DNA of 38,411 nucleotides from Candidatus Eiseniibacteriota bacterium (lineage in GTDB: Bacteria > Eisenbacteria > RBG-16-71-46 > CAZAMP01), in contig CBDCYW010000016.1 in the NCBI GenBank assembly GCA_965224245.1, forward strand, positions 1-38,411. Reading direction: 5' to 3'. Shown one piece after another: positions 1,189 through 38,411 of this stretch. The stretch's first letter is position 1. Each line of letters starts with the position of its first letter. Under the pieces are notes generated by a model. That model ran no database searches and had not been told where the DNA came from. It was given only the letters and a program-made list of their open reading frames with translations. A program made the translations under genes and the position numbers.

Positions 1189-1207
1189 TCGCTATCCGTC
1201 GCCCATT

Positions 1208-7538: not shown

Positions 7539-7539
7539 G

Positions 7540-14851: not shown

Positions 14852-14852
14852 G

Positions 14853-16574: not shown

Positions 16575-16575
16575 G

Positions 16576-17794: not shown

Positions 17795-18405
17795 TGGTAG
17801 TCACGCCTCCGGTACTTCTGATCCAGCACGGCCTTCACCGTCAGCGGCATCTCGCCGATCTTGAACGTCTGCGTCTGCCCGTCGCCTACCGTCGAGATGC
17901 TGTCATACAGGTGGCCTCGGCCCTCGAACCGAACCGCCCACAGGTGTTGCACGAACTCGATCGCCGCCTGTACCAGATCAGGCGGGAGCGTGGCTGTGGT
18001 TGTCGCTAGCCCCGTCGGCGTCGTGACGCGAATGTTCGCCGTACCCTGCGCGAAGATCCCGTCGCGTAGAAAGATGATGCCGTCCGCCGTGCCGTCGCCC
18101 GACGTCGCCGGGTTCAGCGTCGAGTCGGCCGTCCACGTCGTGCCGTCGCCCTCGAGGTACTCGATCGTGATGGACTCCGATGGGTAGCACGGCCAGTTGG
18201 GGAGCTTGATACGGCTCTCGCCGTTGCCGTTCAGCACGTAGGCGCGGGACGTCTTGAGGAACAACCGATTGCAGTAGTCCTCGATGCGCGAGGATGCGAC
18301 GTCGATCAGACGATTGAGGCGGTCGGTATCGTCGCCGACGGTGTCGTCTCGCTTGATCCAGTCCTGGACGTCATCGAGCGCGCACAGGTCCATCGACGCG
18401 GCCAT
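17791..18405 (-). CDS. head-tail connector (gp6/gp15-like adaptor)
   Basis: LCALDDVQDWI...LIDVASSRIEDYCNRLF...LPPDLVQAAIEFV...VKAVLDQKYRR. Confidence 0.8.
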   Translation of the reverse strand: MAASMDLCALDDVQDWIKRDDTVGDDTDRLNRLIDVASSRIEDYCNRLFLKTSRAYVLNGNGESRIKLPNWPCYPSESITIEYLEGDGTTWTADSTLNPATSGDGTADGIIFLRDGIFAQGTANIRVTTPTGLATTTATLPPDLVQAAIEFVQHLWAVRFEGRGHLYDSISTVGDGQTQTFKIGEMPLTVKAVLDQKYRRRDYQ

Positions 18406-18408
18406 GAT

Positions 18409-18687
18409 CTACTTCTTTCCCCATCGTCGAGCCGGCTTCGTTCGTGGCGCCTTGGTGGCCTTCTCGGCCTTCGGCTTCGGCTCGGCTGCCTCCGGCTCTG
18501 ACGCTTTCGCTTTCGGCTGCGCTTCCCCTTCGAACTCCAACCGTTCGGCGTCGACGCTGGCCTTCAGATACACCGCCAGCTCGTCGCTGACGTCGGTGTA
18601 GTGGTCGAACACGATCCGGACGAACCGGCCGAGCGTATGATCCTCGATCGTCAGCCGTCCCGGCTCTGTGAGCTTGCAACGTGGCAT
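18409..18687 (-). CDS. small hypothetical protein after the capsid gene
   Basis: RBS-like AAAGGACGGAG upstream of ATG 18687; Lys/Ala/Pro-rich tail. Confidence 0.6.
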   Translation of the reverse strand: MPRCKLTEPGRLTIEDHTLGRFVRIVFDHYTDVSDELAVYLKASVDAERLEFEGEAQPKAKASEPEAAEPKPKAEKATKAPRTKPARRWGKK

Positions 18688-18758
18688 CAGTTCTCCGTCC
18701 TTTCGATCAGGCGCCGAGCCGACGACCGACCCGGCGCCCATGCGCTACGCTACTCGTC

Positions 18759-20237: not shown

Positions 20238-20316
20238 AACCGCACCCCTCCGCTTTCCTGTTCCTTTCCTGTCTCTGCGAAGCGCCCGGTGATGAGGGGA
20301 GCGCGGTTAACTCGAA

Positions 20317-20606
20317 CTAGGCGTCCTCGTCGATCCAGACCACGAGCAGCTCGTCGTCTGATGTGTCGGTAGTCGAAAGCACGATCTTGCCGGCCGCCGG
20401 GATGGTCGTTTCTGCCGTCCTGTCTGCGGGCGCTGCTGCGTCCGTGTGGTGATACACGAACAAGATGTGATCGTCCGTCGCGATCCCGGTCAACGTGATC
20501 TGCGTGGTCGCTGTCGCGCCCGTGACCACGTTGAACTTGAGCTTTGCCGTCGAGAAGTTGTCGAAAACGGCGTCGGTTCGTGCCAAACGACGTCAGTTCG
20601 TGCCAT
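20317..20606 (-). CDS. small virion protein (possible head decoration); start region carries a 20-bp tandem duplication
   Basis: Between protease and capsid genes. The RBS AAGGAG precedes ATG 20606, but the long frame starts at TTG 20586. Confidence 0.55.
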
Positions 20607-20629
20607 GTCCCTGTCTCCTTCGTGTTCCC

Positions 20630-21328
20630 TTAGCCGAAGGCGCCTAGCGCCGTTTCGATTTGCCGTATCTCCTCGCCGAACGCCCCAAGCGCGCCGACGT
20701 CATCGCTCCGCTTGTGACCCGCCTGGATCATGCCCGCGAGTTCGTCCAGCCTGTCCTCGAGAGCCTTGAAGTGCGCGTCGATGTCGAACTCATCGCCGCT
20801 TCCCATCGCCTTGATGATGAGTTCCTTCGCGCTCGCGCTCGCGTTTGATGGGAGCGGCAGGATTGAGAACTCGTAGAGGCGCTGGTTGGTGTACCGCCTA
20901 CCCGGTGCCGGCCTCGGTGCGCGAGATCCTGGAACCCGCTTGGTGACCGACCCGTCGGCGTTCTTCCACTCCTTCGGGTCGAAGCCCACCGAGCCGTCGA
21001 CGAGCGTCCCGTCGGCGACCATCGCCTCGACCTCGCGCGCGGTCTTGTGGGCCCGCGTGAACTTCACGAGCCCAACGAGCGAGTCACCATCCTTCGAGTA
21101 GTCCGACACGCGCCCGACCACGTCCGTGTGGTTCACGCCGACGCCCATGTTCCCGCGATGCGCCCACAGAACCGGGGCCGACGACGCCTCGAACTCCCAC
21201 CCCTTGACGTCGATGTATTCGCCGTCTCGGTCTTGCCCGTCGGTCGACAGTACCCACTCGACCGTTCCGTTGTTCTCGTCGTAGGTGGCCGCCTTACTGA
21301 GCGCGGCCGGGTGCGCCTTGTGTGGCAC
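20630..21328 (-). CDS. HK97-type prohead maturation protease
   Basis: STDGQDRDGEYI...PVLWAH...SVGF...LYEFSILPLPSNASA. Confidence 0.9.
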   Translation of the reverse strand: MPHKAHPAALSKAATYDENNGTVEWVLSTDGQDRDGEYIDVKGWEFEASSAPVLWAHRGNMGVGVNHTDVVGRVSDYSKDGDSLVGLVKFTRAHKTAREVEAMVADGTLVDGSVGFDPKEWKNADGSVTKRVPGSRAPRPAPGRRYTNQRLYEFSILPLPSNASASAKELIIKAMGSGDEFDIDAHFKALEDRLDELAGMIQAGHKRSDDVGALGAFGEEIRQIETALGAFG

Positions 21329-23510
21329 CTGACACCTCCTCCACCAGTAGCGGTGCGACAGTGCACCGGCAGCTGATGATCTCGTCCGGTGGCCCTTCGG
21401 GATCGCCGGGGTATCTCAAAAGCGAGCCGCCCACGTTGAACCGCTCACCCAACACCACAGGCTCGACGTTCCGGTGCGACTCGCGAACCTCGCTATCGCC
21501 AGCGTCCAGCCATTCCATCTTCTCGACAACGCCCGACGCCTCATAGCCGGCCAGACTGCCGAAATTGAAAGCCGGGATTGCCTCGGTGCGCGCGATGGTC
21601 AGCGCCCGCGCTAGCTCGACGTCCATCACCTGACGCACCGTGTCCTGGAGCGCGGCGATCGTCAGGTCCTCGGCGGTCGCCTTCTCGATGAGCGCGTCTC
21701 GCAATCGCTGCAGTACCGTCTCCGGCCAGTTGCCCGAGATCGCCTGCACCTTCGAGGCGAGGTAGGCGCGCACGGCGTCCGAGGTCACGTCGACCGAGGC
21801 GTCGATGCCGAGTTCGGCGAGCACCTCGGCGGCGCGTTGGAGCACGGAACGCGTCTGGAACGTCCGGGCGCGACGGGCCACGAGGCGTTGCGCGTCGTGA
21901 CCGTTGGGCACGATCTCGTAGGTCTCGAGGTCGGCGACGGTGAATACCTTCGAGCGCGGCGACGTGGTAGCCTTGTCCAGCTTCGAGAGCGCCTTGACCG
22001 CATGGGACTCCCAGCCTTTGAGGATGTCGTCCAGGTCGCGCTTGATCGATCGCGCCATCTTCTCGACCTTCACGGCGTGGTCGAGCTTGTCGATCTCGCG
22101 GTCGTCTACCGCCTTGATCATGAACGCGTCGGTAGGGGCCGAGCGCGAAGGCTCATCACCGGCTTCGCCGTCGCTTCCGCTGTCGGCAGTCCCCGGACCT
22201 CCACCCTCGGCCCCAAACAGCGCCGCCGCGTGGATGCGCGATCGGTACTCCGTCAAGAGGACGTCGCCGCCTGGGATTGGCCCCTCGGCCTGCTTCACGC
22301 CCTTCTCGGCAAGGAACTCACGCACCCCGTTTAGCGAGATGAACGCCGATAGCTTCGTGGCGATGTCGGCCGCTTCGTTCAAATCCTCCTGGAGCGCCGA
22401 GACGCTCGACAGATCGGACTCGACCACGAGCGAGTCGTCGTACTCGGGCATCAAGAACTCGGTCAGGAACGAGTCGACGAGGCAAAGCTTGGGCCGCGCC
22501 ACGTCGACCCAGAAGCCGCGCTCCTGAGCGTCCATGTTCGAGTAGTTGGCGAACTCCAGGAACCCCAGCTTTCCAGGCGGTACGCCCGTCGCCGCCGACA
22601 CCTCCTGGATGATGGCTTTCCAGAGCTGGGTGAACTCCATGTCCTTGTGGGACGTGCCGAGCATCTTGAAATCGGAGTCATTGTCTGCGATGAGCGGCTC
22701 GTGTCCGCCCTTGCCGACCTTGCGGCGTAGCTCGTACATGACGCGGCGCCGTAGCGAGTCGTCCTTGAGGACCTGACCCTTGAACACCTGGATCAGGCGT
22801 TGATGTGAGCCGCCGTATCTGAAGCCGTTCGTGTTGAACGCCGTCATCCACTTGCTCAACGCGAGCGTGTTCCCGAGCACCTCGCCGGCACCGGTACCGG
22901 TGCGGTAGCCCTCGATCGAGAACTCGGCGATGTGCAACATCCGCGTCGGGTGGATGATGATGGGCGCCTTCGCGGGGTCGGTGTGGTACTCGTAGTGGCT
23001 GACCCGCGTCACGTCCGACGCCACGGGGTTCACGAGCTTGGGGTGTAGGAGCATCAACCGTTCGGGCGGGTGGTTCGGCTTCTCGGTCTTGAAGATGGCC
23101 GTGTCGCCCGACTCGTCGCCGTACAGCTTGAATAGGTAGGCGTTCCCGTTGAGGACTAGCCACGAGACGATGGCGCGCCGGAAGGCGTCGCCCGTCTGCC
23201 ACTCGTTCGGGCGGTCGAGTAGATCCTGAGCCTCGCCGGGGAACTCCTCGAGCGACCCATCGCCCATCGTGCGGTAGACCTTGCGCGGGATCTGGGCCAC
23301 GGCGTCGCCGATGGTACGCACGGCGGCGTAGAGCCATGGGTTCCAACCGTAGGCCTCGATGGCGTCCTCGGGCGGGGTCAGCTTGACCACGTCGCCCGAC
23401 AACTGACCCGGGAACAACGAGGCGATGGCGGTCGCCGCCTTGGCGGTCGCCGCCGCTCGGCGCTCGACGATCTCGGGGTCGGTGCCCATGATGCGGGTGA
23501 GCCAGCTCAT
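21294..23510 (-). CDS. portal protein fused to a C-terminal Mu gpF-like (minor head) domain
   Basis: Portal motifs (WLYAAVRTIGDAVAQIP, WLVLNGNAY, GVPPGKLG..ANYSN), then ARALTIARTE...KMEWLDAGDSEVRESH...LRYPGDP..EIISCRCTV. Confidence 0.9.
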   Translation of the reverse strand: MSWLTRIMGTDPEIVERRAAATAKAATAIASLFPGQLSGDVVKLTPPEDAIEAYGWNPWLYAAVRTIGDAVAQIPRKVYRTMGDGSLEEFPGEAQDLLDRPNEWQTGDAFRRAIVSWLVLNGNAYLFKLYGDESGDTAIFKTEKPNHPPERLMLLHPKLVNPVASDVTRVSHYEYHTDPAKAPIIIHPTRMLHIAEFSIEGYRTGTGAGEVLGNTLALSKWMTAFNTNGFRYGGSHQRLIQVFKGQVLKDDSLRRRVMYELRRKVGKGGHEPLIADNDSDFKMLGTSHKDMEFTQLWKAIIQEVSAATGVPPGKLGFLEFANYSNMDAQERGFWVDVARPKLCLVDSFLTEFLMPEYDDSLVVESDLSSVSALQEDLNEAADIATKLSAFISLNGVREFLAEKGVKQAEGPIPGGDVLLTEYRSRIHAAALFGAEGGGPGTADSGSDGEAGDEPSRSAPTDAFMIKAVDDREIDKLDHAVKVEKMARSIKRDLDDILKGWESHAVKALSKLDKATTSPRSKVFTVADLETYEIVPNGHDAQRLVARRARTFQTRSVLQRAAEVLAELGIDASVDVTSDAVRAYLASKVQAISGNWPETVLQRLRDALIEKATAEDLTIAALQDTVRQVMDVELARALTIARTEAIPAFNFGSLAGYEASGVVEKMEWLDAGDSEVRESHRNVEPVVLGERFNVGGSLLRYPGDPEGPPDEIISCRCTVAPLLVEEVSGATQGAPGRAQ

Positions 23511-23511
23511 G

Positions 23512-24900
23512 TCACGCCACCGGTACATAGTCGATGATCTTGGCCCGCGCCTGAGTGATCGCGTGAACGCACATCGCCTCCCCCATCACCGTATCGTCAT
23601 GCTTGCCGCTCGGGTGACCGTAGCGGAACTTGAGTTCGGCGCCGATGACGCGCCCTCGCGGGATGATCGGCTCTTGCTGGAAGTCGTCATGCTCCTGCCA
23701 ACCGACCGGGTCGGCCTCGCGCGATAGCCGTAGGTATTGCCCCGTCTGTAGCTTCGCGAGGTAGTTCTCCACGAGCATCGGCTTGCTCGACTCGGTGAAC
23801 ACGAACGGGATAACGTCGACGCCCTCCGACACGAGCCCGTCATAGACGGCGTCCCCGACTCCAGTAGCGTCGATGCATACCGTTGCGTCGTTCCAGATCC
23901 GAGCCCTCGACTTAATGCGAGCGATCTGAAGGTCCCATCGCGTGTGCTGGTCGCGCCACTCGTCGACGGCAACGCCGATGAGAGGCGATGCGACATCGAC
24001 TCGCGCGACGCGGCCGGCGGTGTAGTCTTGGTGTTTCGCCACGTCCACGCCGATGACGTAGCGGGCTCCGGCGACGGGGGCGGCACGCTCAGCGACAGAC
24101 CACCGGGCAAGGTCGTTGAAGAACCGAGCGGCGCTGTCGAGTGGCTCGGCGAGGATCTCTTGACGGAACAGGGCATCGGACATGGTCGCGCGAGCACGTT
24201 CGACGCGGTCGGGTGTCCACCACGGTGCGATCTGTTCGACAGACGGGAGCCTGATAGACAGGAAACTTGGGTCGACGGGTGGCTTGTTCTTGACGAGGCG
24301 GCGGGTTCCGTCCTTGCCCTTCTCGTACTTAGCGACGAGGGGACTGTCACCATCCTCGTCGAGCCCTCGGCGGTAGTCCTCATAGAACCGATTGCGCCCT
24401 CGGAACGTGCCGAGCCCGATGGATACGGCGTCGTGTACGGCGAACGCGGGATAGATGTAGTCCCAAGCGTCATCGGGGAACATGCCGGCCTCATCGAGGA
24501 TGGCCCCGCTTCGCATGGTCTCGCCGACCACGTCGCCAGGGTTGGCCCCGACCGATCGGAACTGGAGTTGAGAGCCCCAGAGCCAATCGATGTGACGCTC
24601 TGCCTTGTTGATGAGCCCGAGGCGGCTGCTACCACAGCGCACATTGCGAGCGAGATGAGACAGGAGGCGGAACGGCTTCTTCCCCAGCGGATACGTCGGC
24701 GTGACGTAGTAGTCGACCTCGGTAGGGCCGCTGTTCCGGCTGAGGAGCTCAACTGCCGCCCGCCTCGCTAGTACCGTTCCGCCGATCTGACGGCCCTTTG
24801 CTATTCGCAAGTGCCTCGCCTTGGGCCACTCCCTCAGCGATCGCAAGACGGTCCGCTGCCACGGAAGAGGCGGCTCCCATTCCACTTCGAGACGTTCCAT
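23512..24900 (-). CDS. terL: terminase large subunit
   Basis: Walker A-like AKGRQIGGT, Walker B ILDEAG, nuclease motifs IGVDVAKHQDYT and HDDTVM. Confidence 0.92.
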   Translation of the reverse strand: MERLEVEWEPPLPWQRTVLRSLREWPKARHLRIAKGRQIGGTVLARRAAVELLSRNSGPTEVDYYVTPTYPLGKKPFRLLSHLARNVRCGSSRLGLINKAERHIDWLWGSQLQFRSVGANPGDVVGETMRSGAILDEAGMFPDDAWDYIYPAFAVHDAVSIGLGTFRGRNRFYEDYRRGLDEDGDSPLVAKYEKGKDGTRRLVKNKPPVDPSFLSIRLPSVEQIAPWWTPDRVERARATMSDALFRQEILAEPLDSAARFFNDLARWSVAERAAPVAGARYVIGVDVAKHQDYTAGRVARVDVASPLIGVAVDEWRDQHTRWDLQIARIKSRARIWNDATVCIDATGVGDAVYDGLVSEGVDVIPFVFTESSKPMLVENYLAKLQTGQYLRLSREADPVGWQEHDDFQQEPIIPRGRVIGAELKFRYGHPSGKHDDTVMGEAMCVHAITQARAKIIDYVPVA

Positions 24901-25150
24901 CGGAGAACCTCACCTCGATGGTGCCGGACTGCTGGATCTGCTGGGCCGGCCGGCCGTAGGCGGTGTCGCGCAGTAGCGCCACGACCCCGAGTGCCTGGGT
25001 GGAGTCCTCGGCGAACAGCTTCCGGCACATGCCCACGACGTCGCGCGCTATCGCCTCGGCGTTGTACGCGCCCGGGTCTATGCGCTCCATCTCGGCCCGG
25101 ATGGCCTCGGGGAGCGGCAGGCAGCGTTTTGGGGTCTTTGCGTCCGCCAC
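24749..25150 (-). CDS. putative terminase small subunit
   Basis: Directly upstream of terL; LLRDTAYGRPAQQI motif typical of small terminases. Confidence 0.6.
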   Translation of the reverse strand: MADAKTPKRCLPLPEAIRAEMERIDPGAYNAEAIARDVVGMCRKLFAEDSTQALGVVALLRDTAYGRPAQQIQQSGTIEVRFSDGTSRSGMGAASSVAADRLAIAEGVAQGEALANSKGPSDRRNGTSEAGGS

Positions 25151-27785: not shown

Positions 27786-28004
27786 TCACGTCCCATCTGG
27801 CCACCTCCCTGCCGTCAGCGCCTCGGCGCGCCACTTCTCGCGGCTCATCTTGATGCCGGCGGCGGTGCACTTGGCGGCGAAGTCGAGACAGTCGGCGGCG
27901 ATGACCATGGCGAGCTTGGTCTCGGCGTCTGTCGGTCGCCCGACGCCCGTGCCGGCGATGGCGTGCATGGCGATCTCGAGGGTCAGGCGCTCACGTTCGG
28001 TCAT
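27786..28004 (-). CDS. hypothetical protein
   Basis: ATGA-coupled to the methyltransferase stop; starts MTERERLTLEIA. Confidence 0.6.
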   Translation of the reverse strand: MTERERLTLEIAMHAIAGTGVGRPTDAETKLAMVIAADCLDFAAKCTAAGIKMSREKWRAEALTAGRWPDGT

Positions 28005-29104
28005 ACGAGCGTCTCCTGCGCCAGCCGTGCGGCGGCGATGTCGAGATGGTCGGCTCCGATGTCGATGCCAACGCAACGCCATCCGTGGCCGCCGTACTTG
28101 GCGGCGACCGCGGTGGTACCTGACCCGACGAATGGGTCGAGCACGGTGCCGCCGGGGCGTGTCACGAGGCGGATCAGGTAGCGCATCAGGTCAACCGGTT
28201 TCACGCATGGATGCCCGTTGGAGCCCTCGCCGCCGCTATGGCGTTCGGTGGAGTCGGCCTTAGGGACGTAGAAGAACCGGGCGGCGCTGCTCACCGGAAA
28301 CCCCGCCACCACCTCGTCGCTGCCGTCGTGGATCAGGTTGGCGGGCCAGCGGCCGGCAGGGAGTGGGATGTCGCCTCGCGCATATGCTTCCCGCTGGGCG
28401 TCGTTGTTCTGGCCGATACGCGCCGACCCCCTACCCCCGGCGCCCTTCGCGGCCCACGTCTCGGGTGTGTCATCCATGCCGCCGGGGATACGCGAGGCGT
28501 CCACATTGATCGCCCCCGTGCCCCACTTGAGCACGTTCGCCGCGACGGTGCCGTCGAGAGGCTTACGCGCGACGACGATCGGCTCCACCGCTGGCTTTAG
28601 CGCCGTGCCCCAGCCGCCCCACTCGCGCGCGGCGTCGGTGGCGGGGGCGGTGATGTTGAACTCGGGTTTGTAGCCTGCCTGGCCAGCATCGGCCCACCCG
28701 ACGCCGACTTGGTTGGTTGAGCGCCCAACCACCTCCCGCTCAGCCCCAGCCGCCTTGTCTATCGCCTTCGATACGTCGAGCGACTTGGGGAACCCCGAGC
28801 CGTACACCCACATGATGCAATCGCGGATCTCCCAGCCCGCATCCTCGATCGCGCACGCGAGACGGTGATAGGTGCGGGTGCCCCCGAACGCGAGGAGATG
28901 CGCGCCGGGCTTGGCGACTCGCGCAGCCGCTTGCCAGAACTCGACGCCAGGCACGCCGTGGTCCCATCCCTTGCCCATGAAGCTGAGCCCGTAGGGCGGG
29001 TCCGTCACGATCGCGTCCACGCTCTCGGCGTCCATCGACGCCATGACCTCTCGGCAGTCGCCGAGGTACAGCGTCACGCGCCCGTCGTCGTGATACGGCG
29101 TCAT
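28001..29104 (-). CDS. DNA N4-cytosine/N6-adenine methyltransferase (beta class)
   Basis: LYLGDC...IVTDPPY...HPCVKPVDLM...VLDPFVGSGTT. Confidence 0.93.
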   Translation of the reverse strand: MTPYHDDGRVTLYLGDCREVMASMDAESVDAIVTDPPYGLSFMGKGWDHGVPGVEFWQAAARVAKPGAHLLAFGGTRTYHRLACAIEDAGWEIRDCIMWVYGSGFPKSLDVSKAIDKAAGAEREVVGRSTNQVGVGWADAGQAGYKPEFNITAPATDAAREWGGWGTALKPAVEPIVVARKPLDGTVAANVLKWGTGAINVDASRIPGGMDDTPETWAAKGAGGRGSARIGQNNDAQREAYARGDIPLPAGRWPANLIHDGSDEVVAGFPVSSAARFFYVPKADSTERHSGGEGSNGHPCVKPVDLMRYLIRLVTRPGGTVLDPFVGSGTTAVAAKYGGHGWRCVGIDIGADHLDIAAARLAQETLV

Positions 29105-29355
29105 GGCACCAGCCTCAGTTGTTCCTCGGTCACGAGCCGGTAGGCGGCCCACGTCGTGCCGTGCTTCTCGACGATCTTACGCTCGATGGTGTGACCGCGC
29201 TTCTTGAGGTCGTAGATCCGTGCCGGGACACGGGTAATCCATGTGCCGTCTGCGAGGTCGCAGGTCGGGTGCCACTCGCCGTCCTGGAGTATGGCCAGGA
29301 TGCGCTCGCACTGCGTCGGCTTTTCGATGCGGCCGGTCAGGTCGTGGGCGCTCAC
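29101..29355 (-). CDS. winged-HTH DNA-binding protein
   Basis: TQCERILAILQDG...RVPARIYDLKKRGHTI. Confidence 0.75.
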   Translation of the reverse strand: MSAHDLTGRIEKPTQCERILAILQDGEWHPTCDLADGTWITRVPARIYDLKKRGHTIERKIVEKHGTTWAAYRLVTEEQLRLVP

Positions 29356-29555
29356 TTCGAGCTCCACTCGCCGCACCAGTCGTGTGCGTACACTCGTGGC
29401 CACTGTTCACCGTCGCGTATCGGATTGTGGCTCGTGTATCCATTGATTATCGGGTTCGTTGGCGGGAACCTATGACACTCGCCCGCGTCTCTGTCGCCAT
29501 GCGTACGCCTGTACCACTTGCACGACTTGCAGTGGTATCGGTCGGACACGCTCAT
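29352..29555 (-). CDS. small Cys-rich phage protein
   Basis: CKSCKW...GECHRFPP...WPRV...DWCGEW. Confidence 0.7.
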   Translation of the reverse strand: MSVSDRYHCKSCKWYRRTHGDRDAGECHRFPPTNPIINGYTSHNPIRDGEQWPRVYAHDWCGEWSSK

Positions 29556-29809
29556 CTCGTCGCCGCCTCCCTCCGGGTCATGGTCTGGCGCTCGGGGTCC
29601 CAATCGTAGGCGCGCTCACCCTCGCCGTTGCCCTCGGCGCGCACGGTCAGCCGCACCGGGATGTCGTAGGTCGTCGCAAAGGCCTCGGCGGCGGCGGCGT
29701 GGTGGGGCGCTCCGATGGTGGCGCCGGCGTAGTCTCGGGTGCCTGACGTCACGAGGACGGTGTAGCGCTTGAGTCTCGCAATGCGTTTCCGGCATGCCTC
29801 ACAGGTCAT
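29552..29809 (-). CDS. hypothetical protein
   Basis: Coupled ORF, 85 aa. Confidence 0.5.
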   Translation of the reverse strand: MTCEACRKRIARLKRYTVLVTSGTRDYAGATIGAPHHAAAAEAFATTYDIPVRLTVRAEGNGEGERAYDWDPERQTMTRREAATR

Positions 29810-30218
29810 CGACGGCGCTCACTTTCACGACGACGCCGGGCGTGTCGCCGTATTGCTTGAGGATTGACAATGCCACGACCTGGGCGTCGTCGGCCCACAG
29901 GATGCCGTTCCCCGCGTCCAACACGGCCTTAGTGATGTTGTCGGCGTCCGGCCGACTCGGGCGCGGGTCGCCGTCTCGACGCCCACCCTTGGCGGGGATC
30001 GGCCACGAGGCTACGATGTCGACCCAGATCGGGACGCCGGGACCGTACACCGGCCGGACGTGCGCTTGACGCCGCATGTGGGTTGCTGCCTTGAGTTTCC
30101 AGACCCGCGAGCGTTCGGGATCGTAGACTCTGGCGCGCCCGGCGGGCGTTCTTGTGGCGCGCCCTCGGCCTTGCGCGACGGGCGTGCCGGGGATGGATAC
30201 GGAGATCACGTCGGCCAC
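29799..30218 (-). CDS. rusA: RusA-family Holliday junction resolvase
   Basis: IPGTPVAQGR...SRPDADNITKAVLDAGNGILWADDAQVV. Confidence 0.9.
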   Translation of the reverse strand: MADVISVSIPGTPVAQGRGRATRTPAGRARVYDPERSRVWKLKAATHMRRQAHVRPVYGPGVPIWVDIVASWPIPAKGGRRDGDPRPSRPDADNITKAVLDAGNGILWADDAQVVALSILKQYGDTPGVVVKVSAVDDL

Positions 30219-30436
30219 CTCAACACGATCTCACCCCCGCCTCGGGACACCACCTCGGCGTCACCCCGCCGGAGCACCGCCACGATCGACCCATGTCCCC
30301 ACTCGCGTCTCCCGTGCTTCCACTTGCCGTCGCCACCCATTCGCCGCCGGAGGGTCAGCGTGCCCTCTGCCTCGAGGAGCGCCGAGAGCGTCTGCCATGT
30401 CTCGTTTTTGAGATACTTCCGGATGTCGTGAGACAC
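30206..30436 (-). CDS. hypothetical protein
   Basis: 76 aa, in operon order. Confidence 0.5.
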   Translation of the reverse strand: MSHDIRKYLKNETWQTLSALLEAEGTLTLRRRMGGDGKWKHGRREWGHGSIVAVLRRGDAEVVSRGGGEIVLRWPT

Positions 30437-30440
30437 GTTT

Positions 30441-30803
30441 TCAGCCCCTCTCGGCGCGTTTCGCCTCGACTGGCCCCGGGGTACCGGTTTCGTCGTTCGC
30501 GTCGCCCTGTGGCACGTATGGCCCCTTCTCGGCGCCCTCAGCGTCGAGCCATGCCCGGACGGTGGCGTACCGTCGCCTCAACGCCCACGCCTGCCGGATC
30601 GACCGCTTGCGCCAGCCCGGCGAGAACGGGCGTTCGCATCGCCCATCCTCGTTGAACCGCTCCCCGCACGACAGGCAGGTGAGGTCCGGCCCGTACCACT
30701 CGTACGAGGCGACGACGAACAGCGTCGTTGCCTCGCACGTCGGGCAGTCGAGATGGCGCTCGGCGACATCGACGGGCGGGGGCGCGCAGATGTGGGCGGT
30801 CAT
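30441..30803 (-). CDS. zinc-finger hypothetical protein
   Basis: CPTC...CLSC; ATGA coupling. Confidence 0.6.
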   Translation of the reverse strand: MTAHICAPPPVDVAERHLDCPTCEATTLFVVASYEWYGPDLTCLSCGERFNEDGRCERPFSPGWRKRSIRQAWALRRRYATVRAWLDAEGAEKGPYVPQGDANDETGTPGPVEAKRAERG

Positions 30804-31027
30804 GGGTTCACCGCCAGGCTCCTGTCCCACACCGCCAGACGCATGTCGGCGATGTCGCGGACGTCGACGTACTCGCGCGCACCAAACGCTGTGATGAACA
30901 CACAGAACGGGATGGCCCCATCAATCCCGTCACGTTCGTAGACTGCCTCCAGGCGCGCGTACCCGATCGCCCCATTGACGTTCCTGAACTCGACGCCGAG
31001 GCCAACGAGGTTCTTGAAGTCCTTCAC
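30800..31027 (-). CDS. hypothetical protein
   Basis: Coupled at both ends. Confidence 0.55.
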   Translation of the reverse strand: MKDFKNLVGLGVEFRNVNGAIGYARLEAVYERDGIDGAIPFCVFITAFGAREYVDVRDIADMRLAVWDRSLAVNP

Positions 31028-31383
31028 GACATCCCCCTCAGCTTGAGCCCTAGCGCCCGCCGGGTCGCCTCGATCGTCTCGGGCGACGCCTGGGCCTCGT
31101 CGGCGCGTTCGAGCATCCGGCGCTCGTTGCTCTCGATCCGGGCCACGACGGCGTTCGCCTCGCGGTTTGCGGCGATCGCGGCCTTGATGTCCGGTGGCCC
31201 CGGAAACCAGCGCTGGCGCTCAGGGTCCTCGGTGTGACGGCGGGCGGCATCCATCAGCTCTTGCGCGTCGATGTGCGCGAAGTCCTCGCAGTACGCCTCG
31301 CCTGTCTCGTCGGAGAGCGGGAACGAGGGGTAGCGCGCCACGAGCCAGTTCACGACGGCCAGGATCTCGTTACGTGTCGCCAT
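31024..31383 (-). CDS. replicative helicase loader/inhibitor-like protein (G39P-like)
   Basis: LVARYPSF...YCEDFAHIDAQELMDAARRH...WFPGPPDI; directly downstream of the initiator. Confidence 0.65.
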   Translation of the reverse strand: MATRNEILAVVNWLVARYPSFPLSDETGEAYCEDFAHIDAQELMDAARRHTEDPERQRWFPGPPDIKAAIAANREANAVVARIESNERRMLERADEAQASPETIEATRRALGLKLRGMS

Positions 31384-32239
31384 GGGGTATCTCCAGGTTC
31401 TTTGCGGCAAGCGCCGCGACGGTGGCATAGCCCTTGGGTTTCGGTCGCTCTGACGGCGGCGAGACGCGGCCGTTGGTCGGGGCGCGGTCGATGTAGTTCC
31501 CGTCCAGGATCTTCGTGATGTTCGTGGGCTTGAGCACCCAATCGAACGCCATCGCGGGGTTGTCGAGCGCGAACGGCTTGGACTTGGCGAACGTCGCGAA
31601 CAGCTCGCGCCACCATTCGAGGTCTGGATGCTGTCGCCACCGCGTCCGAACGGTGTTCTGGCGCTCGTCTTTGATCCCTCGTGGCTGTGGCTTTGCCGGG
31701 AGGTAGCGTTTCCAGAGGGCCAGGATCTCGTCGTATGGCGGCGACCCCTCTGGGGGTTTCTCTTCCGAAGATGAAGATGAAGATGAAGATGAAGATGAAG
31801 ATGAAGAGCTATCGTTAGCCATTGGCTGTTCATTGGCTGAGCCATCACCGTCGGATGGCTGAGCCATAGCTGAGCCATGCTTCCAACGCTTTGCAGCGCC
31901 GCGCTTTCCTGCGTCTTTGCGTTCTCGACGACGTTTCGACTGTGCTTTCAACTCGGATCGAATGCGTTTGTGGTAGATGAATTCGTCGTCGGGGTCGTCC
32001 CAAGCGAATAGCTCTTGTGCCACGCGTCGGACGACATCGATAGGCGCACCCTTTGTGAGAAGGCTGAGCCGTTCGAGATCGCTCGGGAGTTGCCCCTGCT
32101 TGCATCCGGGCGCTGAGCCGCGCCAGCAATGGCAGAGGAGTCGGATGTAGACGCCCTCCTCCTCGGAGGTCATCCACTCGGTATCGGTGAGGTAGTCGGC
32201 TGGGTAGAACTGGAAAGCAGGGGAGTCCGAATTTCCCAC
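31370..32239 (-). CDS. phage replication initiator (DUF1376/YdaU-type N-terminus)
   Basis: PAFQFYPADYLTDTEWMTSEEEGVYIRLLCHCW; low-complexity linker; C-terminal FDWVLKPTNITKILDGNY. Confidence 0.85.
   Translation of the reverse strand: MGNSDSPAFQFYPADYLTDTEWMTSEEEGVYIRLLCHCWRGSAPGCKQGQLPSDLERLSLLTKGAPIDVVRRVAQELFAWDDPDDEFIYHKRIRSELKAQSKRRRERKDAGKRGAAKRWKHGSAMAQPSDGDGSANEQPMANDSSSSSSSSSSSSSSSEEKPPEGSPPYDEILALWKRYLPAKPQPRGIKDERQNTVRTRWRQHPDLEWWRELFATFAKSKPFALDNPAMAFDWVLKPTNITKILDGNYIDRAPTNGRVSPPSERPKPKGYATVAALAAKNLEIPHGDT
31767..31878. repeat. (GAAGAT)6+ tract and GCTGAGCCAT iteron-like repeats inside the initiator; candidate origin
   Basis: GAAGAT x6 at 31767-31802; GCTGAGCCAT at 31836, 31858 and 31869. 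Confidence 0.55.
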
Positions 32240-32244
32240 GTAAG

Positions 32245-32312
32245 CACCCTCCTCCATAGGGTGAAAGATCCCCACCGGCAGGTCGTGATGGAGGCACGAC
32301 CCACCGGCGGGG
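32245..32312 (-). promoter_or_regulatory. two hairpins with complementary 7-nt loops (kissing loop) over the initiator RBS
   Basis: 18-bp stem with loop CCUCCAU (32270-32312) and 6-bp stem with loop AUGGAGG (32245-32263), just 5' of GTG 32239. Confidence 0.7.
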
Positions 32313-32352
32313 GGCAGAGCGCCGATAGTGCCTGGCGGCCGGGGCGCGGGGC

Positions 32353-32952
32353 TCATTCTACCACACTCGTTTTTGCAATCGCAACGAGCTCATCACGAAA
32401 CGCTTCGGGCGTCGCCGACGCTGCCGCCTTGCCAACGCGCGGGCGCACCTCGCCAGACTTGACACGGTTCTCGCACCACGACACCAGGGCCGTTGACGAC
32501 TGATCCAGTGTCCGCCCCCAGCGCAAGTCGGGGAGCTCGACGCCGTGCGCGTACAGCCACGTGGCTTTCTTCGCCGGGTGCCCGTACCGCCATTGCTCGA
32601 TGTAGCACGTCCATCCACCCTCGTAGTCCGCGTTCACCCACCCGCCACCGGTCGGGGGTCGGTTGAGCCCGAACGCCGCCCATGCGTCAGAGTACGCGGG
32701 GTGTTCGAGTACGCCCCCGTACCGCCGCACCGACTCGAGCGCCGACGCGAACATGCCACCGTCCTCGCCACGCGTGTGCCCCCAGCGCGCCTCTACGAGT
32801 CCGGCGAGTCGGCACCATCTTGAGCACGGCGGGTGCGCCACGACGGGGTACGGGCCAGCGTAGTTCCTGGCGTCGCGAGCCTCATCCCAGATGTCGACGT
32901 CTGGGAGTTCGGCGTAGACGCCTTTGGGGTCAACGAACAGCGCCGCAACCAT
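32353..32952 (-). CDS. divergent C5-cytosine methyltransferase-like protein
   Basis: VVAHPPC (motif IV-like), VLEHP (motif VI-like), QWRYGHPAKKATWL (motif VIII-like); lacks a clear FxGxG. Confidence 0.5.
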   Translation of the reverse strand: MVAALFVDPKGVYAELPDVDIWDEARDARNYAGPYPVVAHPPCSRWCRLAGLVEARWGHTRGEDGGMFASALESVRRYGGVLEHPAYSDAWAAFGLNRPPTGGGWVNADYEGGWTCYIEQWRYGHPAKKATWLYAHGVELPDLRWGRTLDQSSTALVSWCENRVKSGEVRPRVGKAAASATPEAFRDELVAIAKTSVVE

Positions 32953-33351
32953 CTACTCCTCGGCGTCTGTGGGGGCAAGGGCGTCCCAGCCCTCATGGCG
33001 TGCCTCGCTAGGAAGATGCGGGTCGATCGACGATACGTATGCGGCAATGTTCTGTGGGTCATGCTCCTCTGTCGAGTAGCCGTGGCCCCAAGCTGAACGA
33101 CGCACCCCAGCCAACATCTTCTCGCCCTGCGAATACTCACCACCGAGCAAAAGCGTCGACGCCCAGGGGGTGCCGTTTGGAGACAGGTAGAAGTAGCCCG
33201 GCCACCATCGACCAAAGACGAACGTGGGGAGTTTCACACAGGCATAGCCCCACCGACGCGTTGAGATATTCCACGCGCCATGCATGGCGCTTCGTAGCGG
33301 GTACACCGTCACGGGACCGATTGACCTAGCCATCTCACGCACTCCCCTCAT
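32953..33351 (-). CDS. hypothetical protein
   Basis: Coupled ORF; Trp/Tyr-rich (YFYLSPNGTPWAST). Confidence 0.6.
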   Translation of the reverse strand: MRGVREMARSIGPVTVYPLRSAMHGAWNISTRRWGYACVKLPTFVFGRWWPGYFYLSPNGTPWASTLLLGGEYSQGEKMLAGVRRSAWGHGYSTEEHDPQNIAAYVSSIDPHLPSEARHEGWDALAPTDAEE

Positions 33352-33500
33352 CGTCGGTTGGTGTAAGGGCACGCCGACGTCGCCATCACCGACGCCATCA
33401 CCAGCGCCAGACCGATCACCCGCCACAGGATCGCGCCCGTCCCGATCGCGAACGCCACCGCGCCCGCGAGATACGCCACCGCCCGTTTCAGTCCTCGCAT
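33348..33500 (-). CDS. small membrane protein, paralog 1
   Basis: GAGGAGGAG RBS; MRGLKRAVAYLAGAVAFAIGTGAILWRVIGLALVMASV. Confidence 0.6.
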   Translation of the reverse strand: MRGLKRAVAYLAGAVAFAIGTGAILWRVIGLALVMASVMATSACPYTNRR

Positions 33501-33516
33501 GACTCCTCCTCGGTTA
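33371..33516. repeat. 146-bp direct repeat, copy 1
   Basis: Near-identical to 34697-34842 (offset 1326). Confidence 0.95.
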
Positions 33517-33760
33517 TCAGCTCGGATCGCCGGTCGCGCGTGTAGTGCATAACGCGAGACGCGCCCGGGTACGACTCCGCCCACTCTTCGAACTGGCGAA
33601 CCTCATCCACCCGCGCCGCCTTCTCGCGGGTGAGGCAGAGATCCCTCACGGCGTCGAGGCTGATTACGAACATGAGATCACCGGGGCCGTAGGATTTGCG
33701 TTCCTCGACATCGATCATGGCCTCAATATCCCGCTCCCGCTGAGCGTCGAAGTCAGTCAT
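33488..33760 (-). CDS. hypothetical protein
   Basis: Starts MTDFDAQRERD; ends TEEESCED like the HTH gene because of the repeat. Confidence 0.6.
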   Translation of the reverse strand: MTDFDAQRERDIEAMIDVEERKSYGPGDLMFVISLDAVRDLCLTREKAARVDEVRQFEEWAESYPGASRVMHYTRDRRSELITEEESCED

Positions 33761-33901
33761 GTCAGACCCCTGCGCGTGGTCTGATGCCAGTCTGTGTTCC
33801 ACGGCGCATCCTTTCGGACGGCATCAACCGCCGCGTCGAAACGCTTCTGCGCCTCATTCAGTCGAGTAGCCGCTTCGCTTCGACGATGTCCGGGGCCTTG
33901 C

Positions 33902-34321
33902 TCACGTCGTCGCCTCCTTATCGTGAACGAGTCTCCACACAGTGTGGTCACTCAACGTCCCGCAGGGCGCGTGGAAGATCACGACAGGCAGCCGCATCGC
34001 CTCGGCTGTTTTGATGGCGTTTAGTGTCCCGCGACTTTTGCCGTCCCAGACAGCGAGCAGCGCGTTGGCGCCTTGCAACATCTCTCGGTTACGGATTGGG
34101 CCAGCGGGTTTCCCGTGTCGGTCCCAATCCGCGCGGAACACCCGGTGCTCGATACCGTTGCCCTTGGCGTATGCGACGACGCGAGGGTCGACGCCACGGG
34201 GGCAATCGCCCACGTGCACCACGGTAGCGCCAACGTCGGACATCGCCCACCGGACGGCAGCCTGCACTAGGGATGCGTCGGTGATCCCGCGCGAGCCCGA
34301 GACAGCCAACACGAGGCTCAC
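33902..34321 (-). CDS. SLOG-family (DUF2493/YspA-like) nucleotide-binding protein
   Basis: VSGSRG...VHVGDCPRGVD...ADWDRHGKPAGPIRNREML...WDGKSRGT. Confidence 0.85.
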   Translation of the reverse strand: MSLVLAVSGSRGITDASLVQAAVRWAMSDVGATVVHVGDCPRGVDPRVVAYAKGNGIEHRVFRADWDRHGKPAGPIRNREMLQGANALLAVWDGKSRGTLNAIKTAEAMRLPVVIFHAPCGTLSDHTVWRLVHDKEATT

Positions 34322-34662
34322 GTCGCCCTCGCTTTCACCTTGCGAACGAGCACCGCCGACCACTCGGGGTCGAACTCGACGTGGACGTGAGAGTCTTCGA
34401 GCACCACGTCGTAATCGAGCGGCAGCGACTCGCGCAGCGCGTCGCGAAACTGCGCGCGCTTGAGCGTCCAGTCGGTGACGTAGCAGTCGAACGCCAGCCC
34501 CGACCAGTGCTTCGACTTGCGGCTGTGCGCGCCCTCGCGACCGCCCGACATGACGAGCGAGTCGGCCCCGACGTGACGCGCGGCCTCGATGGCGACCGTC
34601 CAGGCGTAGAGCGCCTCGGGTGGGTTGGGGACCACGACGTCGTCGCGGATGGCAACTCTCAT
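34318..34662 (-). CDS. peptidase M15-like (DD-peptidase/Hedgehog fold) zinc peptidase
   Basis: HSRKSKHWSGLAFD...SHVHVEFDP (H-x6-D...HxH). Confidence 0.75.
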   Translation of the reverse strand: MRVAIRDDVVVPNPPEALYAWTVAIEAARHVGADSLVMSGGREGAHSRKSKHWSGLAFDCYVTDWTLKRAQFRDALRESLPLDYDVVLEDSHVHVEFDPEWSAVLVRKVKARAT

Positions 34663-34826
34663 CGCCTGAGCCACCATAGGAGATCGATGCAGGCTGACGC
34701 CGAGGTCGCCAGCACCGACGCCATCACCAGCGCCAGACCGATCACCCGCCACAGGATCGCGCCCGTCCCGAAGGCGAACGCCACCGCGCCCGCGAGTGCC
34801 AGAAGCGCTCGTTTCAGTCCTCGCAT
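34659..34826 (-). CDS. small membrane protein, paralog 2 (55 aa; not in the ORF track)
   Basis: MRGLKRALLALAGAVAFAFGTGAILWRVIGLALVMASVLATSASACIDLLWWLRR; stop overlaps the peptidase ATG. Confidence 0.6.
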   Translation of the reverse strand: MRGLKRALLALAGAVAFAFGTGAILWRVIGLALVMASVLATSASACIDLLWWLRR

Positions 34827-34842
34827 GACTCCTCCTCGGTTA
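34697..34842. repeat. 146-bp direct repeat, copy 2
   Basis: Near-identical to 33371-33516. Confidence 0.95.
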
Positions 34843-35074
34843 CCAGTCTCGGGCGCCCGTCCCGGTCGAACAGGTCGCCAACCTCAACCTCGAGCGCCGC
34901 CGCGAGCGCCTGACGCGTCAGGACGTGCGGCACACCCTTCGTGCCCGGCCGAGGCACGCCGCCGCGCTTCAGCCAGCTCACCGTCCAGATCGACACATTG
35001 CTCATGGCTGCCAAGTCGACGTTAGCCAAGCCCTTTTCTCGCATGACGTTAGCGAGTACCGTGTGCTTTTCCAT
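34814..35074 (-). CDS. Cro/XRE-like HTH regulator
   Basis: LANVMREKGLANVDLAAMSNVSIWTVSWLKRG...LAAALEVEVGDLF; first gene of the leftward arm. Confidence 0.85.
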   Translation of the reverse strand: MEKHTVLANVMREKGLANVDLAAMSNVSIWTVSWLKRGGVPRPGTKGVPHVLTRQALAAALEVEVGDLFDRDGRPRLVTEEESCED

Positions 35075-35080
35075 GCCCAG

Positions 35081-35110
35081 ACACTACACCAAGGGCGAAT
35101 GCGAGGTCAA
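35081..35110 (-). promoter_or_regulatory. leftward sigma70-type promoter, probably giving a leaderless mRNA
   Basis: TTGACC-18 nt-TAGTGT on the minus strand; ATG 35074 follows 6 nt after the -10. Confidence 0.6.
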
Positions 35111-35140
35111 GGACAACGCAAAGAAAGTTCAATGAGAGTC

Positions 35141-35169
35141 TTGACACCACCGATAGGTAGGTGTAGAGT
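35141..35169 (+). promoter_or_regulatory. rightward sigma70-type promoter
   Basis: TTGACA (35141-35146), 17-nt spacer, TAGAGT (35164-35169). Confidence 0.75.
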
Positions 35170-35338
35170 CCCCACTGTGACGCCGCCGACCCTGCCGTCG
35201 CTGGGTGATCGACGAGGCGGGGATGCGCGGCACGTGTTGGCCCCGTCGGTAGGCGGTACATAGCACGGGAAACCCGGAAACTCCGGGGCGCTGAGAGATG
35301 CCGGCGGGGCCAAATCCTTTCCACGGGAGGAACGAAAG

Positions 35339-35773
35339 ATGAACACGACGACGACCACAGCCACATGCAAGACTTGCGGCGCCGCCACGCTTGACGATGG
35401 CCGATGCTGTATCCCAGCGCACAACCGAACCGATCGCATCGCTGACGACATGAAGAAGCGAGCCAGCATCATGAGCCAGTGCGAGAAGGACTGCGCGCAG
35501 GCGTTCGAGCGCTCGATGCATAGCACGCGCTACGCCTCCGAGGCGTGGGATCGCGTCGTCGCTGATTACCGCGAGATGATCGTGAACCACGTCCGCTCGT
35601 GGTCGCGCCTCGTGCCTGAACCGCGCACCGTGAGCAACACCGAGACGACGAACACCATCGCGACGCTGTCGAGCCTCGCTGACCGCCTCGTGTACGCCGA
35701 GGAGTCCGCCCGCATCGCCGCCGAGCGAGAGGCGGACGAGGGCGCGCGACTGGACGACGAGGTACCGGTATGA
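35339..35773 (+). CDS. hypothetical early protein
   Basis: GGGAGGA RBS; 144 aa; CxxC near the N-terminus. Confidence 0.7.
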   Translation: MNTTTTTATCKTCGAATLDDGRCCIPAHNRTDRIADDMKKRASIMSQCEKDCAQAFERSMHSTRYASEAWDRVVADYREMIVNHVRSWSRLVPEPRTVSNTETTNTIATLSSLADRLVYAEESARIAAEREADEGARLDDEVPV

Positions 35774-35997
35774 AGTACGGACATTTCTGCGGAAAGTGCG
35801 GGACGTGCCCAACGGTTGGTGTTCTGCGGCACGTCGGTAGAGACCCCGTCCCACTATGCGATAAGTGCGGACGCCAGCAAGAGAAGCACGACGACTCTAA
35901 GCCGTATACCAAGACACCGATGGGAGTGTCCATCAACGCGCATGAGTGGTTCGACCGCTACGCCGGCACCGGGTATTCGCACCGGGTATGGGCATGA
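35770..35997 (+). CDS. Cys-rich hypothetical protein
   Basis: CGKC...CDKC; ATGA coupling. Confidence 0.6.
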   Translation: MKYGHFCGKCGTCPTVGVLRHVGRDPVPLCDKCGRQQEKHDDSKPYTKTPMGVSINAHEWFDRYAGTGYSHRVWA

Positions 35998-36212
35998 ACC
36001 TCGCCCCCGTCGCCTGCCGCTGTGGCGCGGCGCTGGAGATCGACGCCGACCGCGTCGGGGACGTGATGGTCGAGACTGAGGGGTGGGCGTGCCGCTCGTG
36101 TCAGGAGCAGCACGCCCCGAGCAACGTCGATGGAGGTCGACATGGCAACGCTACCGCTTGGATCGGAGCCGGGTCAAGCGCTTTGGACGGACCACGGGAT
36201 CGTCGAGGGTGA
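35994..36212 (+). CDS. Cys-rich hypothetical protein
   Basis: CRC...CRSC; ATGA coupling. Confidence 0.5.
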   Translation: MNLAPVACRCGAALEIDADRVGDVMVETEGWACRSCQEQHAPSNVDGGRHGNATAWIGAGSSALDGPRDRRG

Positions 36213-37793: not shown

Positions 37794-38411
37794 GTGAGAT
37801 ACCCACGGTTCGGGGCGTACCTCAATCGCCTCGACAGCGCGGCCGCCGAGATCACGGCCGTCAGCGGCGGGGGCTACCAATTCGCGGCGTCGAAGCGGCC
37901 AGACTACCACGCGCGTGTGCTACGCGAGTACGTCGATACCGTCGCCTACGTCTGGATGCCTCAGATCGTGAGAGATCCCGGCCAGTGGTTTGACGACACG
38001 CTGCTAGAGCATGTCGTCTACCGCGAAGCGACGCGCGGAAACTGGTGGCTGCGAAAGCCCGACGGGACCATCGCGACCATCTGGGGCCGGCGGTGGCTCG
38101 ACTGGCAGCGGTGGGATGTCGTTGATGATGTCGCCGCGCTTCATCTCCAGTGTGTCGATAGGTGGGGCGCGGCGGGCGCGTACAACGCCTGCGTGTGGGA
38201 GTTCTTCGGATACCCGTGGGCGGGGGCGTTTGGTGGTGACATGTCGTGGATCGACGTTACGGCGTGGCGCGAGAACGCTGACCACTTTGCCTTGCTCTTG
38301 TCTACCGACGAGGAGTGCCCGATCATCGTCGGCGGCGACCACCTCACGCCACCGTCGGATCACTTCTGCGGACGCCACCAGGAGGATCTACTGTATCGAC
38401 GAGGCGAGTCG
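37794..38411 (+). CDS. 5' part of a putative glycoside hydrolase (TIM-barrel, GHL15-like); not in the ORF track because it runs off the end
   Basis: AGGGAGGA RBS and GTG 37794; open for 206 codons (MRYPRFGAYLNRL...NWWLRKPDG..IWGRRWLDW...LYRRGES) and continues in frame at base 1. Confidence 0.65.
   Translation, partial: MRYPRFGAYLNRLDSAAAEITAVSGGGYQFAASKRPDYHARVLREYVDTVAYVWMPQIVRDPGQWFDDTLLEHVVYREATRGNWWLRKPDGTIATIWGRRWLDWQRWDVVDDVAALHLQCVDRWGAAGAYNACVWEFFGYPWAGAFGGDMSWIDVTAWRENADHFALLLSTDEECPIIVGGDHLTPPSDHFCGRHQEDLLYRRGES
38403..38411. repeat. 9-bp terminal overlap identical to bases 1-9
   Basis: GGCGAGTCG at both ends. Confidence 0.85.

Follow-up and report, generated by a model that had tools for sequence, protein, structure and literature searches.

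A hairpin and its target ahead of a phage replication gene

The window analyzed here is the whole of contig CBDCYW010000016.1, the 38,411 bases of which belong to a 6.9-Mb, 27-contig genome of a Candidatus Eiseniibacteriota bacterium, and from its gene content we take it to be a siphovirus-like phage genome. Our subject is the minus-strand stretch 32312..32245, directly ahead of a replication gene, where an earlier note made from the sequence had described two hairpins with complementary loops as a kissing-loop RNA element that could lock the ribosome-binding site of the replication initiator. The features of the locus are as follows.

32353..32952, minus strand: upstream gene, 199 aa, phrog_12600 (E 2e-61), with stop codon TGA at 32355..32353
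32384..32355, minus strand: promoter-like site in the 3' end of the upstream gene, TTGCGA, 18 nt, TGgTAGAAT (extended -10)
32312..32270, minus strand: hairpin 1 (stem S1), with 5' arm 32312..32295, loop CCUCCAU 32294..32288 and 3' arm 32287..32270
32269..32258, minus strand: linker AUCUUUCACCCU (12 nt; L3 of the proposed pseudoknot), the last 6 nt being the 5' arm of hairpin 2
32263..32245, minus strand: hairpin 2, CACCCU [AUGGAGG] AGGGUG, 6 bp, -7.5 kcal/mol
32257..32251, minus strand: target AUGGAGG (S2, 7 bp), exact complement of the hairpin 1 loop, overlapping the Shine-Dalgarno sequence
32253..32248, minus strand: Shine-Dalgarno sequence (SD) AGGAGG, 8 nt ahead of GTG 32239
31370..32239, minus strand: replication gene, start codon GTG 32239, 289 aa, with an N-terminal DUF1376 domain and a C-terminal O-like/DnaD-like part

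The domains of the downstream gene bear out its earlier description as resembling a replication initiator. PF07120 (DUF1376, YdaU-like) matches at 34 bits, against a gathering cut-off of 30.1 bits, over residues 48-136 of the long open reading frame (ORF) 32356..31370 and positions 3-85 of the 86-position profile, and the C-terminal half of the ORF matches PHROG families annotated as "replication initiation O-like", "primosomal protein" and "DnaD-like helicase loader". This ORF contains GTG 32239 in its reading frame, and a start there gives a protein beginning MGNSDSPAFQFY. Because most of 30 aligned homologues begin 1-7 residues ahead of the motif SPAFQFYP, GTG 32239 is favored over ATG 32356 as the start. 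The SD had been placed just 5' of this GTG, inside hairpin 2, and that is where AGGAGG lies. The 3' end of the host 16S rRNA (...GGAUCACCUCCUUUCU) contains CCUCC; the anti-SD is therefore canonical, and standard SD/anti-SD pairing applies.

Hairpin 1, with the sequence CCCCGCCGGUGGGUCGUG [CCUCCAU] CACGACCUGCCGGUGGGG, closes its 7-nt loop with an unbroken run of 18 pairs, of which three are G-U. Its predicted energy is -36.2 kcal/mol, compared with -28.2 kcal/mol for the hairpin on the complementary strand, in agreement with the strand preference claimed for it. Folding z-scores for the 136-nt region around it are -2.80 (minus strand) and -0.87 (plus strand), a fold as good as that of the minus strand arose in only 1 of 200 shuffles, and hairpin 1 is present in both the minimum free energy (MFE) fold and the centroid fold of the region. 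Among the 29 perfect-stem hairpins found on both strands of the window (at least 9 bp and at most -12 kcal/mol), it is the most stable and the only one with a complement of at least 6 nt between its loop and the sequence downstream. Stems of 17-18 uninterrupted pairs (G-U allowed), compared by length only, arose in 3 of 30 shuffles, so that stem length alone is unexceptional; what is outstanding in hairpin 1 is its energy together with its loop match. The hairpin lacks the U-tract of an intrinsic terminator, the tail AUCUUUCAC having 4 U among the 9 bases past the stem, and the terminator scan did not flag it.

The exact complementarity reported between the two 7-nt loops holds: all seven bases of 32294..32288 are complementary to 32257..32251 (duplex energy, -9.7 kcal/mol), and the match ends exactly at the loop borders, with no extension past 7 nt. 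Hairpin 2 is a more qualified case. Its sequence and local fold are as described, and it is the local optimum in a 34- to 50-nt context; however, it is missing from the MFE fold of the 136-nt region, where a UCUUUCA/UGGAGGA pairing and a long-range helix take its place, and it is not conserved in the related leaders discussed below. Other copies of the 7-mers in the phage (plus positions 4650, 19877, 27739 and 36130) were considered as trans partners and show nothing convincing. The leader occurs once in its own genome, and a repeated or mobile element was rejected on that ground.

The promoter-like site has 9 of 12 matches, with a TG before the -10 element, and is one of three such sites in 13.4 kb, where shuffles give 1.8. 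If real, it would give a 5' untranslated region (UTR) of ~105-110 nt, and the hairpin would then lie within that UTR and not merely between cistrons. The upstream gene in whose 3' end the site lies matched no Pfam family. Homologues of its 199-aa product, at 53-78% identity, are encoded on 39 viral contigs (loci L006-L044) with varying downstream genes, and the phrog_12600 gene is a mobile early-gene module of unknown function.

Elsewhere in the window, genes for terminase, portal, protease, major head, adaptor, tape-measure and tail-fibre proteins lie on the minus strand at ~25,000..2,400, and the early or replication block at ~36,000..28,000 has RusA, a DNA methylase, a SLOG-domain protein and a RecT-like gene among its genes (Pfam, PHROG). 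A comparison of the contig ends revealed no terminal overlap. The ORF 31024..31878 (minus, 284 aa) shares ~500 nt with the 3' part of the replication gene, in a different frame, and the true start of the gene that follows the replication gene is probably much further downstream than this ORF suggests. In the divergent early region, a 13-bp hairpin (36085..36117, minus, -26.6 kcal/mol) lies near a small plus-strand hairpin with an SD in its loop, GUCGA-UGGAGG-UCGAC followed by AUG (36125..36148). A 15-bp hairpin without a U-tract (18708..18740, minus, -26.4 kcal/mol) begins 19 nt past the stop codon of the major head gene (18759..20237) and is likely a terminator or mRNA stabilizer.

Loop and target complementarity in leaders of other DUF1376 genes

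Close relatives of the locus are scarce. A DNA search of a phage database with 31900..32700 gave no match, species-representative genomes held no close relative of the replication protein, and 60 related genomes yielded a single weak match (E 1.6e-4). Among 5.8 billion protein clusters, as well as viral, metagenome and genome contigs, the closest protein homologues are 36-44% identical. We therefore turned to pairing rather than to sequence, using 351 loci that encode distant DUF1376 homologues. In 272 of them a start codon could be assigned and no fewer than 160 nt lay ahead of it, which gave 212 unique leaders including that of the window; the other 79 loci were set aside because they had no N-terminal motif, no start within 15 codons of it or too short an upstream stretch. 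In each leader, the region from -100 to -8 was folded, and the most stable hairpin was kept if it had an energy of at most -12 kcal/mol and 4-12 nt in the loop and if its 3' end fell at -45 to -8. The score was the number of contiguous Watson-Crick pairs that the loop could form with the sequence separating hairpin and start codon, with a threshold of at least 6. This MFE-based procedure was used in place of an earlier perfect-stem descriptor scan, which had missed the bulged hairpins of L101 and L319 and had a looser background (7/239).

A qualifying hairpin was present in 21 of the 212 leaders, and five of the 21 had a match of at least 6 Watson-Crick pairs (4/20 without the window). A sixth leader, L206, was spotted by eye; the filter had missed it, the stem being longer in its MFE fold and the loop reduced to 3 nt. 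The six loop and target pairs are as follows.

Window: loop CCUCCAU, target AUGGAGG
L101: loop CCUCACA, target UGUGAGG
L051: loop CUUGAAG, target CUUCAAG
L319: loop CUCGCA, target UGCGAG
L189: loop AUUCCAAAGCC, target GGCUUUGGAAU, an 11-nt match
L206: UUCUCGG with CUGAGAG, 5 Watson-Crick and 2 G-U pairs

As background, the same procedure was applied at 7144 pseudo-starts on both strands of the same loci and returned 491 hairpins. Three of these scored at least 6, all with G-U pairs, and none did so with Watson-Crick pairs only, which gives Fisher P values of 5.6e-5 (4/20 versus 3/491) and 1.7e-6 (4/20 versus 0/491). When loops were paired with the SD regions of other leaders, the probability of at least 7 Watson-Crick pairs was 0.0007 and that of at least 6 was 0.0056. 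Loss of the complementarity in related leaders would have spoken against the element proposed in the earlier note; what we found is that it recurs with different sequences and is far commoner than in background hairpins (4/20 versus 0/491 for Watson-Crick pairs).

The six leaders have no primary-sequence similarity by blastn, and the genes upstream of them differ (unknown function, pentapeptide repeat, methyltransferase). The latter indicates that the leader travels with the replication gene, and the two observations together indicate that the pairing is kept while the sequence changes. In five of the six leaders, the target overlaps or abuts the SD and ends 4-11 nt before the start codon. The SD bases themselves are paired in four of the six, and L051 has its target just 5' of the SD. 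Hairpin 1 is more stable on the sense strand in five of the six, L319 being the exception. A DNA-level operator or iteron palindrome was considered and is unlikely, since G-U pairs favor the sense strand in those five leaders. The terminator scan found none of the six leader hairpins to be terminator-like. In L063, L130, L342 and L346, which lack the loop/SD architecture, classical terminators with a stem and U-tract lie ~60 nt before the DUF1376 start.

All six leaders also have a -10-like motif 110-131 nt ahead of the start codon, in the form TG-n-TA-(G/T)-n-n-T or, in L319, GGATAGACT. The -10-like word of the L206 leader recurs in the window at 37901..37910 (minus, GTGGTAGTCT), upstream of the early minus-strand genes near the right contig end, and could mark another promoter of this kind.

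A candidate pseudoknot and its rivals

In the window and the five other leaders, loop bases are complementary to a stretch outside the hairpin, which would place these leaders in the class of H-type pseudoknots. We propose that the stretch is the 5' leader of a phage DUF1376-type replication gene, with a probable promoter of its own in the last part of the upstream gene. Hairpin 1 would fold first, during transcription, before its target exists; upon emergence of the ribosome-binding region, the loop CCUCCAU would pair with AUGGAGG to form an H-type pseudoknot with the 18-bp stem as S1, the 7-bp helix of loop and SD as S2 and the 12-nt linker as L3. S2 would stack on hairpin 1 and cover the 5' part of the SD. 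Initiation at GTG 32239 would thereby be held down, and synthesis from an otherwise strong SD would be damped or gated. Hairpin 2, which has the same 7 bases in its loop, would be a local competitor and not a partner. Hairpin 1 has -36 kcal/mol, compared with a few for a hairpin made by pairing loop and target, and the latter therefore cannot compete in the window; with hairpin 1 preformed, the complementarity could act in cis only through pairing of the loop with the emerging ribosome-binding site. As the SD bases are paired in four of the six leaders, we infer repression of initiation rather than activation. We give this reading, in which a cis pseudoknot blocks the ribosome site and so restricts initiator synthesis, a probability of about 0.5; pairing in vivo, use of the promoter and any relief of the block are presumed in it.

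The geometry was considered with a coarse cylinder model built on A-RNA helix and phosphate parameters, and its figures are approximate. The deep-groove gap for L1 is smallest (10-12 Å) when S2 has 5-7 bp, which fits the L1 of 0-2 nt observed; S2 has 6 or 7 bp in five of the six leaders. In the window, the 12 nt of L3 reach ~78 Å, compared with a path of ~60 Å along the 18-bp stem, and L3 is long enough in L206, L051 and L189 as well. A coaxial complex of hairpin 1, the loop-loop helix and hairpin 2, in contrast, would be ~87 Å long, whereas the 6-nt linker between the hairpins reaches ~42 Å. Since in this model the linker is too short for a coaxial kissing complex and the pseudoknot roughly fits, the pseudoknot is favored, with hairpin 2 as a competitor.

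Several points weigh against the pseudoknot, and the coarseness of this model is one of them. L1 of the window is 0 nt for a gap of ~12 Å (short by ~1 nt at 7 bp), so that one pair probably frays, and in L101 and L319 the L3 suffices only with the AU-rich basal 4-6 pairs of the hairpin open. ViennaRNA cannot score pseudoknots, and a rough estimate of S2 minus a pseudoknot penalty comes close to the -7.5 kcal/mol of hairpin 2, which leaves the occupancy uncertain. There is no orthologous leader and thus no classical covariation on an alignment; a MAFFT alignment of five leaders was structurally meaningless. The proteins of L101, L051, L319 and L206 are 62-67% identical to that of L101 and represent one lineage with diverged leaders, not four independent origins, and 10 members of the L101/L051 protein subfamily lack the architecture (L317, 75% identical to L101, and L209, L211, L217, L218, L322, L325, L326, L329 and L333). 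Another 22 L189-related loci gave 14 new leaders with five proximal hairpins and no match, which brings the total to matches in 5 of 26 start-proximal hairpins in 226 leaders (4/25 in 225 without the window). L189 itself fits poorly: its target stops 23 nt short of the chosen ATG and leaves the SD uncovered, and its 11-nt match cannot fully pair inside a closed loop. The -10-like pattern was widened post hoc, the scan tool's own criteria flagging only the window and L189 (2/6), and L272 has the same -10-like motif (GTGGTAGAAT) with a match of only 4 nt and a local anti-SD hairpin instead. Finally, the in-frame ATG 32356 shares bases with the stop codon of the upstream gene (ATGA), and a longer protein translated through the hairpin is a minor alternative.

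Two features of L189 are recorded here in their own right. A 43-codon ORF at 1091..1230 runs from the ATG in TAGAATG to a TAA 4 nt past the DUF1376 ATG and resembles a coupled leader peptide, and an in-frame TTG within the 11-nt target is an alternative start.

The longer protein just mentioned, of 328 aa and coupled to the upstream gene through the ATGA overlap, would place the hairpin in coding sequence, where its structure would slow ribosomes or have no role. The ORF is indeed open from 32356, and the codon-position GC content of 32356..32240 is coding-like, over 39 codons only and by a measure that does not separate coding from noncoding sequence here. However, the 39-residue extension aligns with nothing in the alignment of 30 homologues, the Pfam domain starts only at residue 48 of the long ORF, and ATG 32356 has no SD comparable to the strong one before GTG 32239; we give this arrangement very little credence. 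The cis kissing-loop switch of the earlier note, in which pairing between the loops of two fully formed hairpins, 1 and 2, would lock the SD, draws on the local prediction of both hairpins with exactly matching loops and on L051, where the target sits in the loop of a weak second hairpin of 4 bp. Hairpin 2 is clear in the window only, is without counterpart in the other four related leaders (L101, L319, L189 and L206) and is absent from the 136-nt MFE fold, and in the coarse model the linker, which is 2 nt in L051, is too short for the coaxial complex, although a strongly bent or side-by-side geometry might fit. In this form the proposal is not supported, and we regard a kissing complex as very unlikely.

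Hairpin 1 might also be a plain structural element, such as a terminator or attenuator without a U-tract, a 5' stabilizer or an RNase III site, with an SD match that has no function. Other strong hairpins without U-tracts follow genes in this phage, as at 18740..18708 after the major head gene, and some homologue leaders (L063 and L130) have classical terminators directly upstream of the gene. RNase III substrates span a size range that includes ~18-25 stacked pairs, and S1 and S2 together would fall within it. The excess of loop and target matches over background is unexpected for a plain hairpin, though, as is the absence of terminator-like hairpins among the six leaders for a terminator, and the promoter-like site would put the hairpin in the 5' UTR; we hold this explanation to be unlikely while leaving it some room. 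A reversal of sign is also conceivable, in the manner of plasmids IncI1 and IncB: the pseudoknot between loop and ribosome-binding site would activate translation, and a trans antisense RNA or a protein on the hairpin 1 loop would prevent it. The position of the L051 target just 5' of the SD and not on it would suit this, as would the leader-peptide-like ORF of L189. It is set against the pairing of SD bases in four of the six leaders, the lack of a separate leader ORF in the window, where the upstream in-frame ORF is continuous with the gene, the lack of any Rfam match to plasmid pseudoknot or antisense families, the lack of a plus-strand promoter-like site near 32200..32330 and the lack of a second window hairpin that shows AUGGAGG so as to suggest a trans partner. 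Activation is, in our judgment, quite improbable here, and we retain the repressing cis pseudoknot as the preferred reading.

Relation to known systems and significance

A search of Rfam 15 gave no match at gathering score in the window or in the five related loci; at 32180..32420 it returned only three chance-level matches (E 3-7), two to microRNA families and one to a small nucleolar RNA family. We compared the element with individual systems. The leaders of IncI1 (ColIb-P9) repZ and IncB repA (Inc RNA/RNAI) were the analogy drawn in the earlier note, and they share with the window a leader hairpin the loop of which pairs at the ribosome-binding site of the initiator, in cis on the rep mRNA. 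The rep pseudoknot of IncI1/IncB activates translation, is blocked by antisense RNA and depends on a coupled leader peptide (PMC8053102). The analogy stands as far as the pairing of a hairpin loop next to the rep ribosome site and fails beyond it: unlike IncI1/IncB, the window has no separate leader peptide ORF (repY/repB), ORF 32356..31370 being continuous, and a scan near 32200..32330 found no plus-strand promoter-like or terminator-like site from which an antisense RNA to hairpin 1 might be made. Moreover, the partner lies only 12 nt past the hairpin, and the pairing here covers SD bases, which argues for repression, unlike the activation in IncI1/IncB.

The c4 RNA of phage P1 is an operon-encoded antisense RNA acting on icd-ant (PMC8198154). 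P1/P7 c4 resembles our candidate in belonging to a phage and in being an upstream structured RNA on the same operon transcript, with loops complementary to a downstream ribosome-binding site and a block of translation as the outcome. Two recognition loops in c4 were reportedly described by Citron and Schuster (1990). Unlike c4, which is a processed, separate trans RNA of ~77 nt with two loops and serves as an immunity factor, the element here has one loop and one target, no evidence of processing and no Rfam match. H-type pseudoknot riboswitches that sequester the SD (SAM/SAH, SAM-II/V and preQ1) have the same topology; in the SAM/SAH riboswitch, the loop pairs with the 3' tail that holds the SD, and the helices stack coaxially (PMC7367207). 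They differ in their conserved ligand-pocket nucleotides, whereas the six leaders share no sequence, use the whole loop in pairing and have no apparent ligand site.

The leader pseudoknots of T4 gene 32 and of Escherichia coli rpsO and rplT are bound by the encoded protein. They too place a pseudoknot at or near the ribosome-binding site, where it sets the translation rate, and T4 gene 32 likewise encodes a phage replication protein; unlike in those operators, nothing here shows RNA binding by the DUF1376 protein. Where comparison was possible, then, the element lacks the defining features of each named system and fits the general class of pseudoknots that occlude the ribosome-binding site. 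We put at about even chances the possibility that it is a new, sequence-diverse variant of that class on a phage replication gene. In a literature search on DUF1376 with replication and phage, none of the papers listed concerned a leader RNA.

A bolder and, we think, rather unlikely extension is a portable replication cassette made up of promoter, leader and DUF1376 gene, with the pseudoknot as a gated switch, rather than a fixed brake, for plasmid-style initiator control or replication-level immunity. Such a switch could be opened by RNase III cleavage of the ~25-bp stacked helix, or a trans RNA or protein of a resident phage could keep it closed. It would constitute a new, unnamed RNA class, defined by co-varying pairs of loop and ribosome-binding site and not by sequence.

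Control of initiator supply has been well worked out in plasmids and much less so for temperate phages with DUF1376/YdaU-type genes, the function of which is poorly characterized. If the pseudoknot is real, it would represent a simple post-transcriptional control point for phage replication, one that several phage lineages would build from loops and targets that match each other but differ in sequence from phage to phage. Rfam 15 has no match to it, which would make it a candidate for addition to curated libraries as a new RNA motif, and with only its pairing conserved it would exemplify the kind of element overlooked by searches that depend on sequence.

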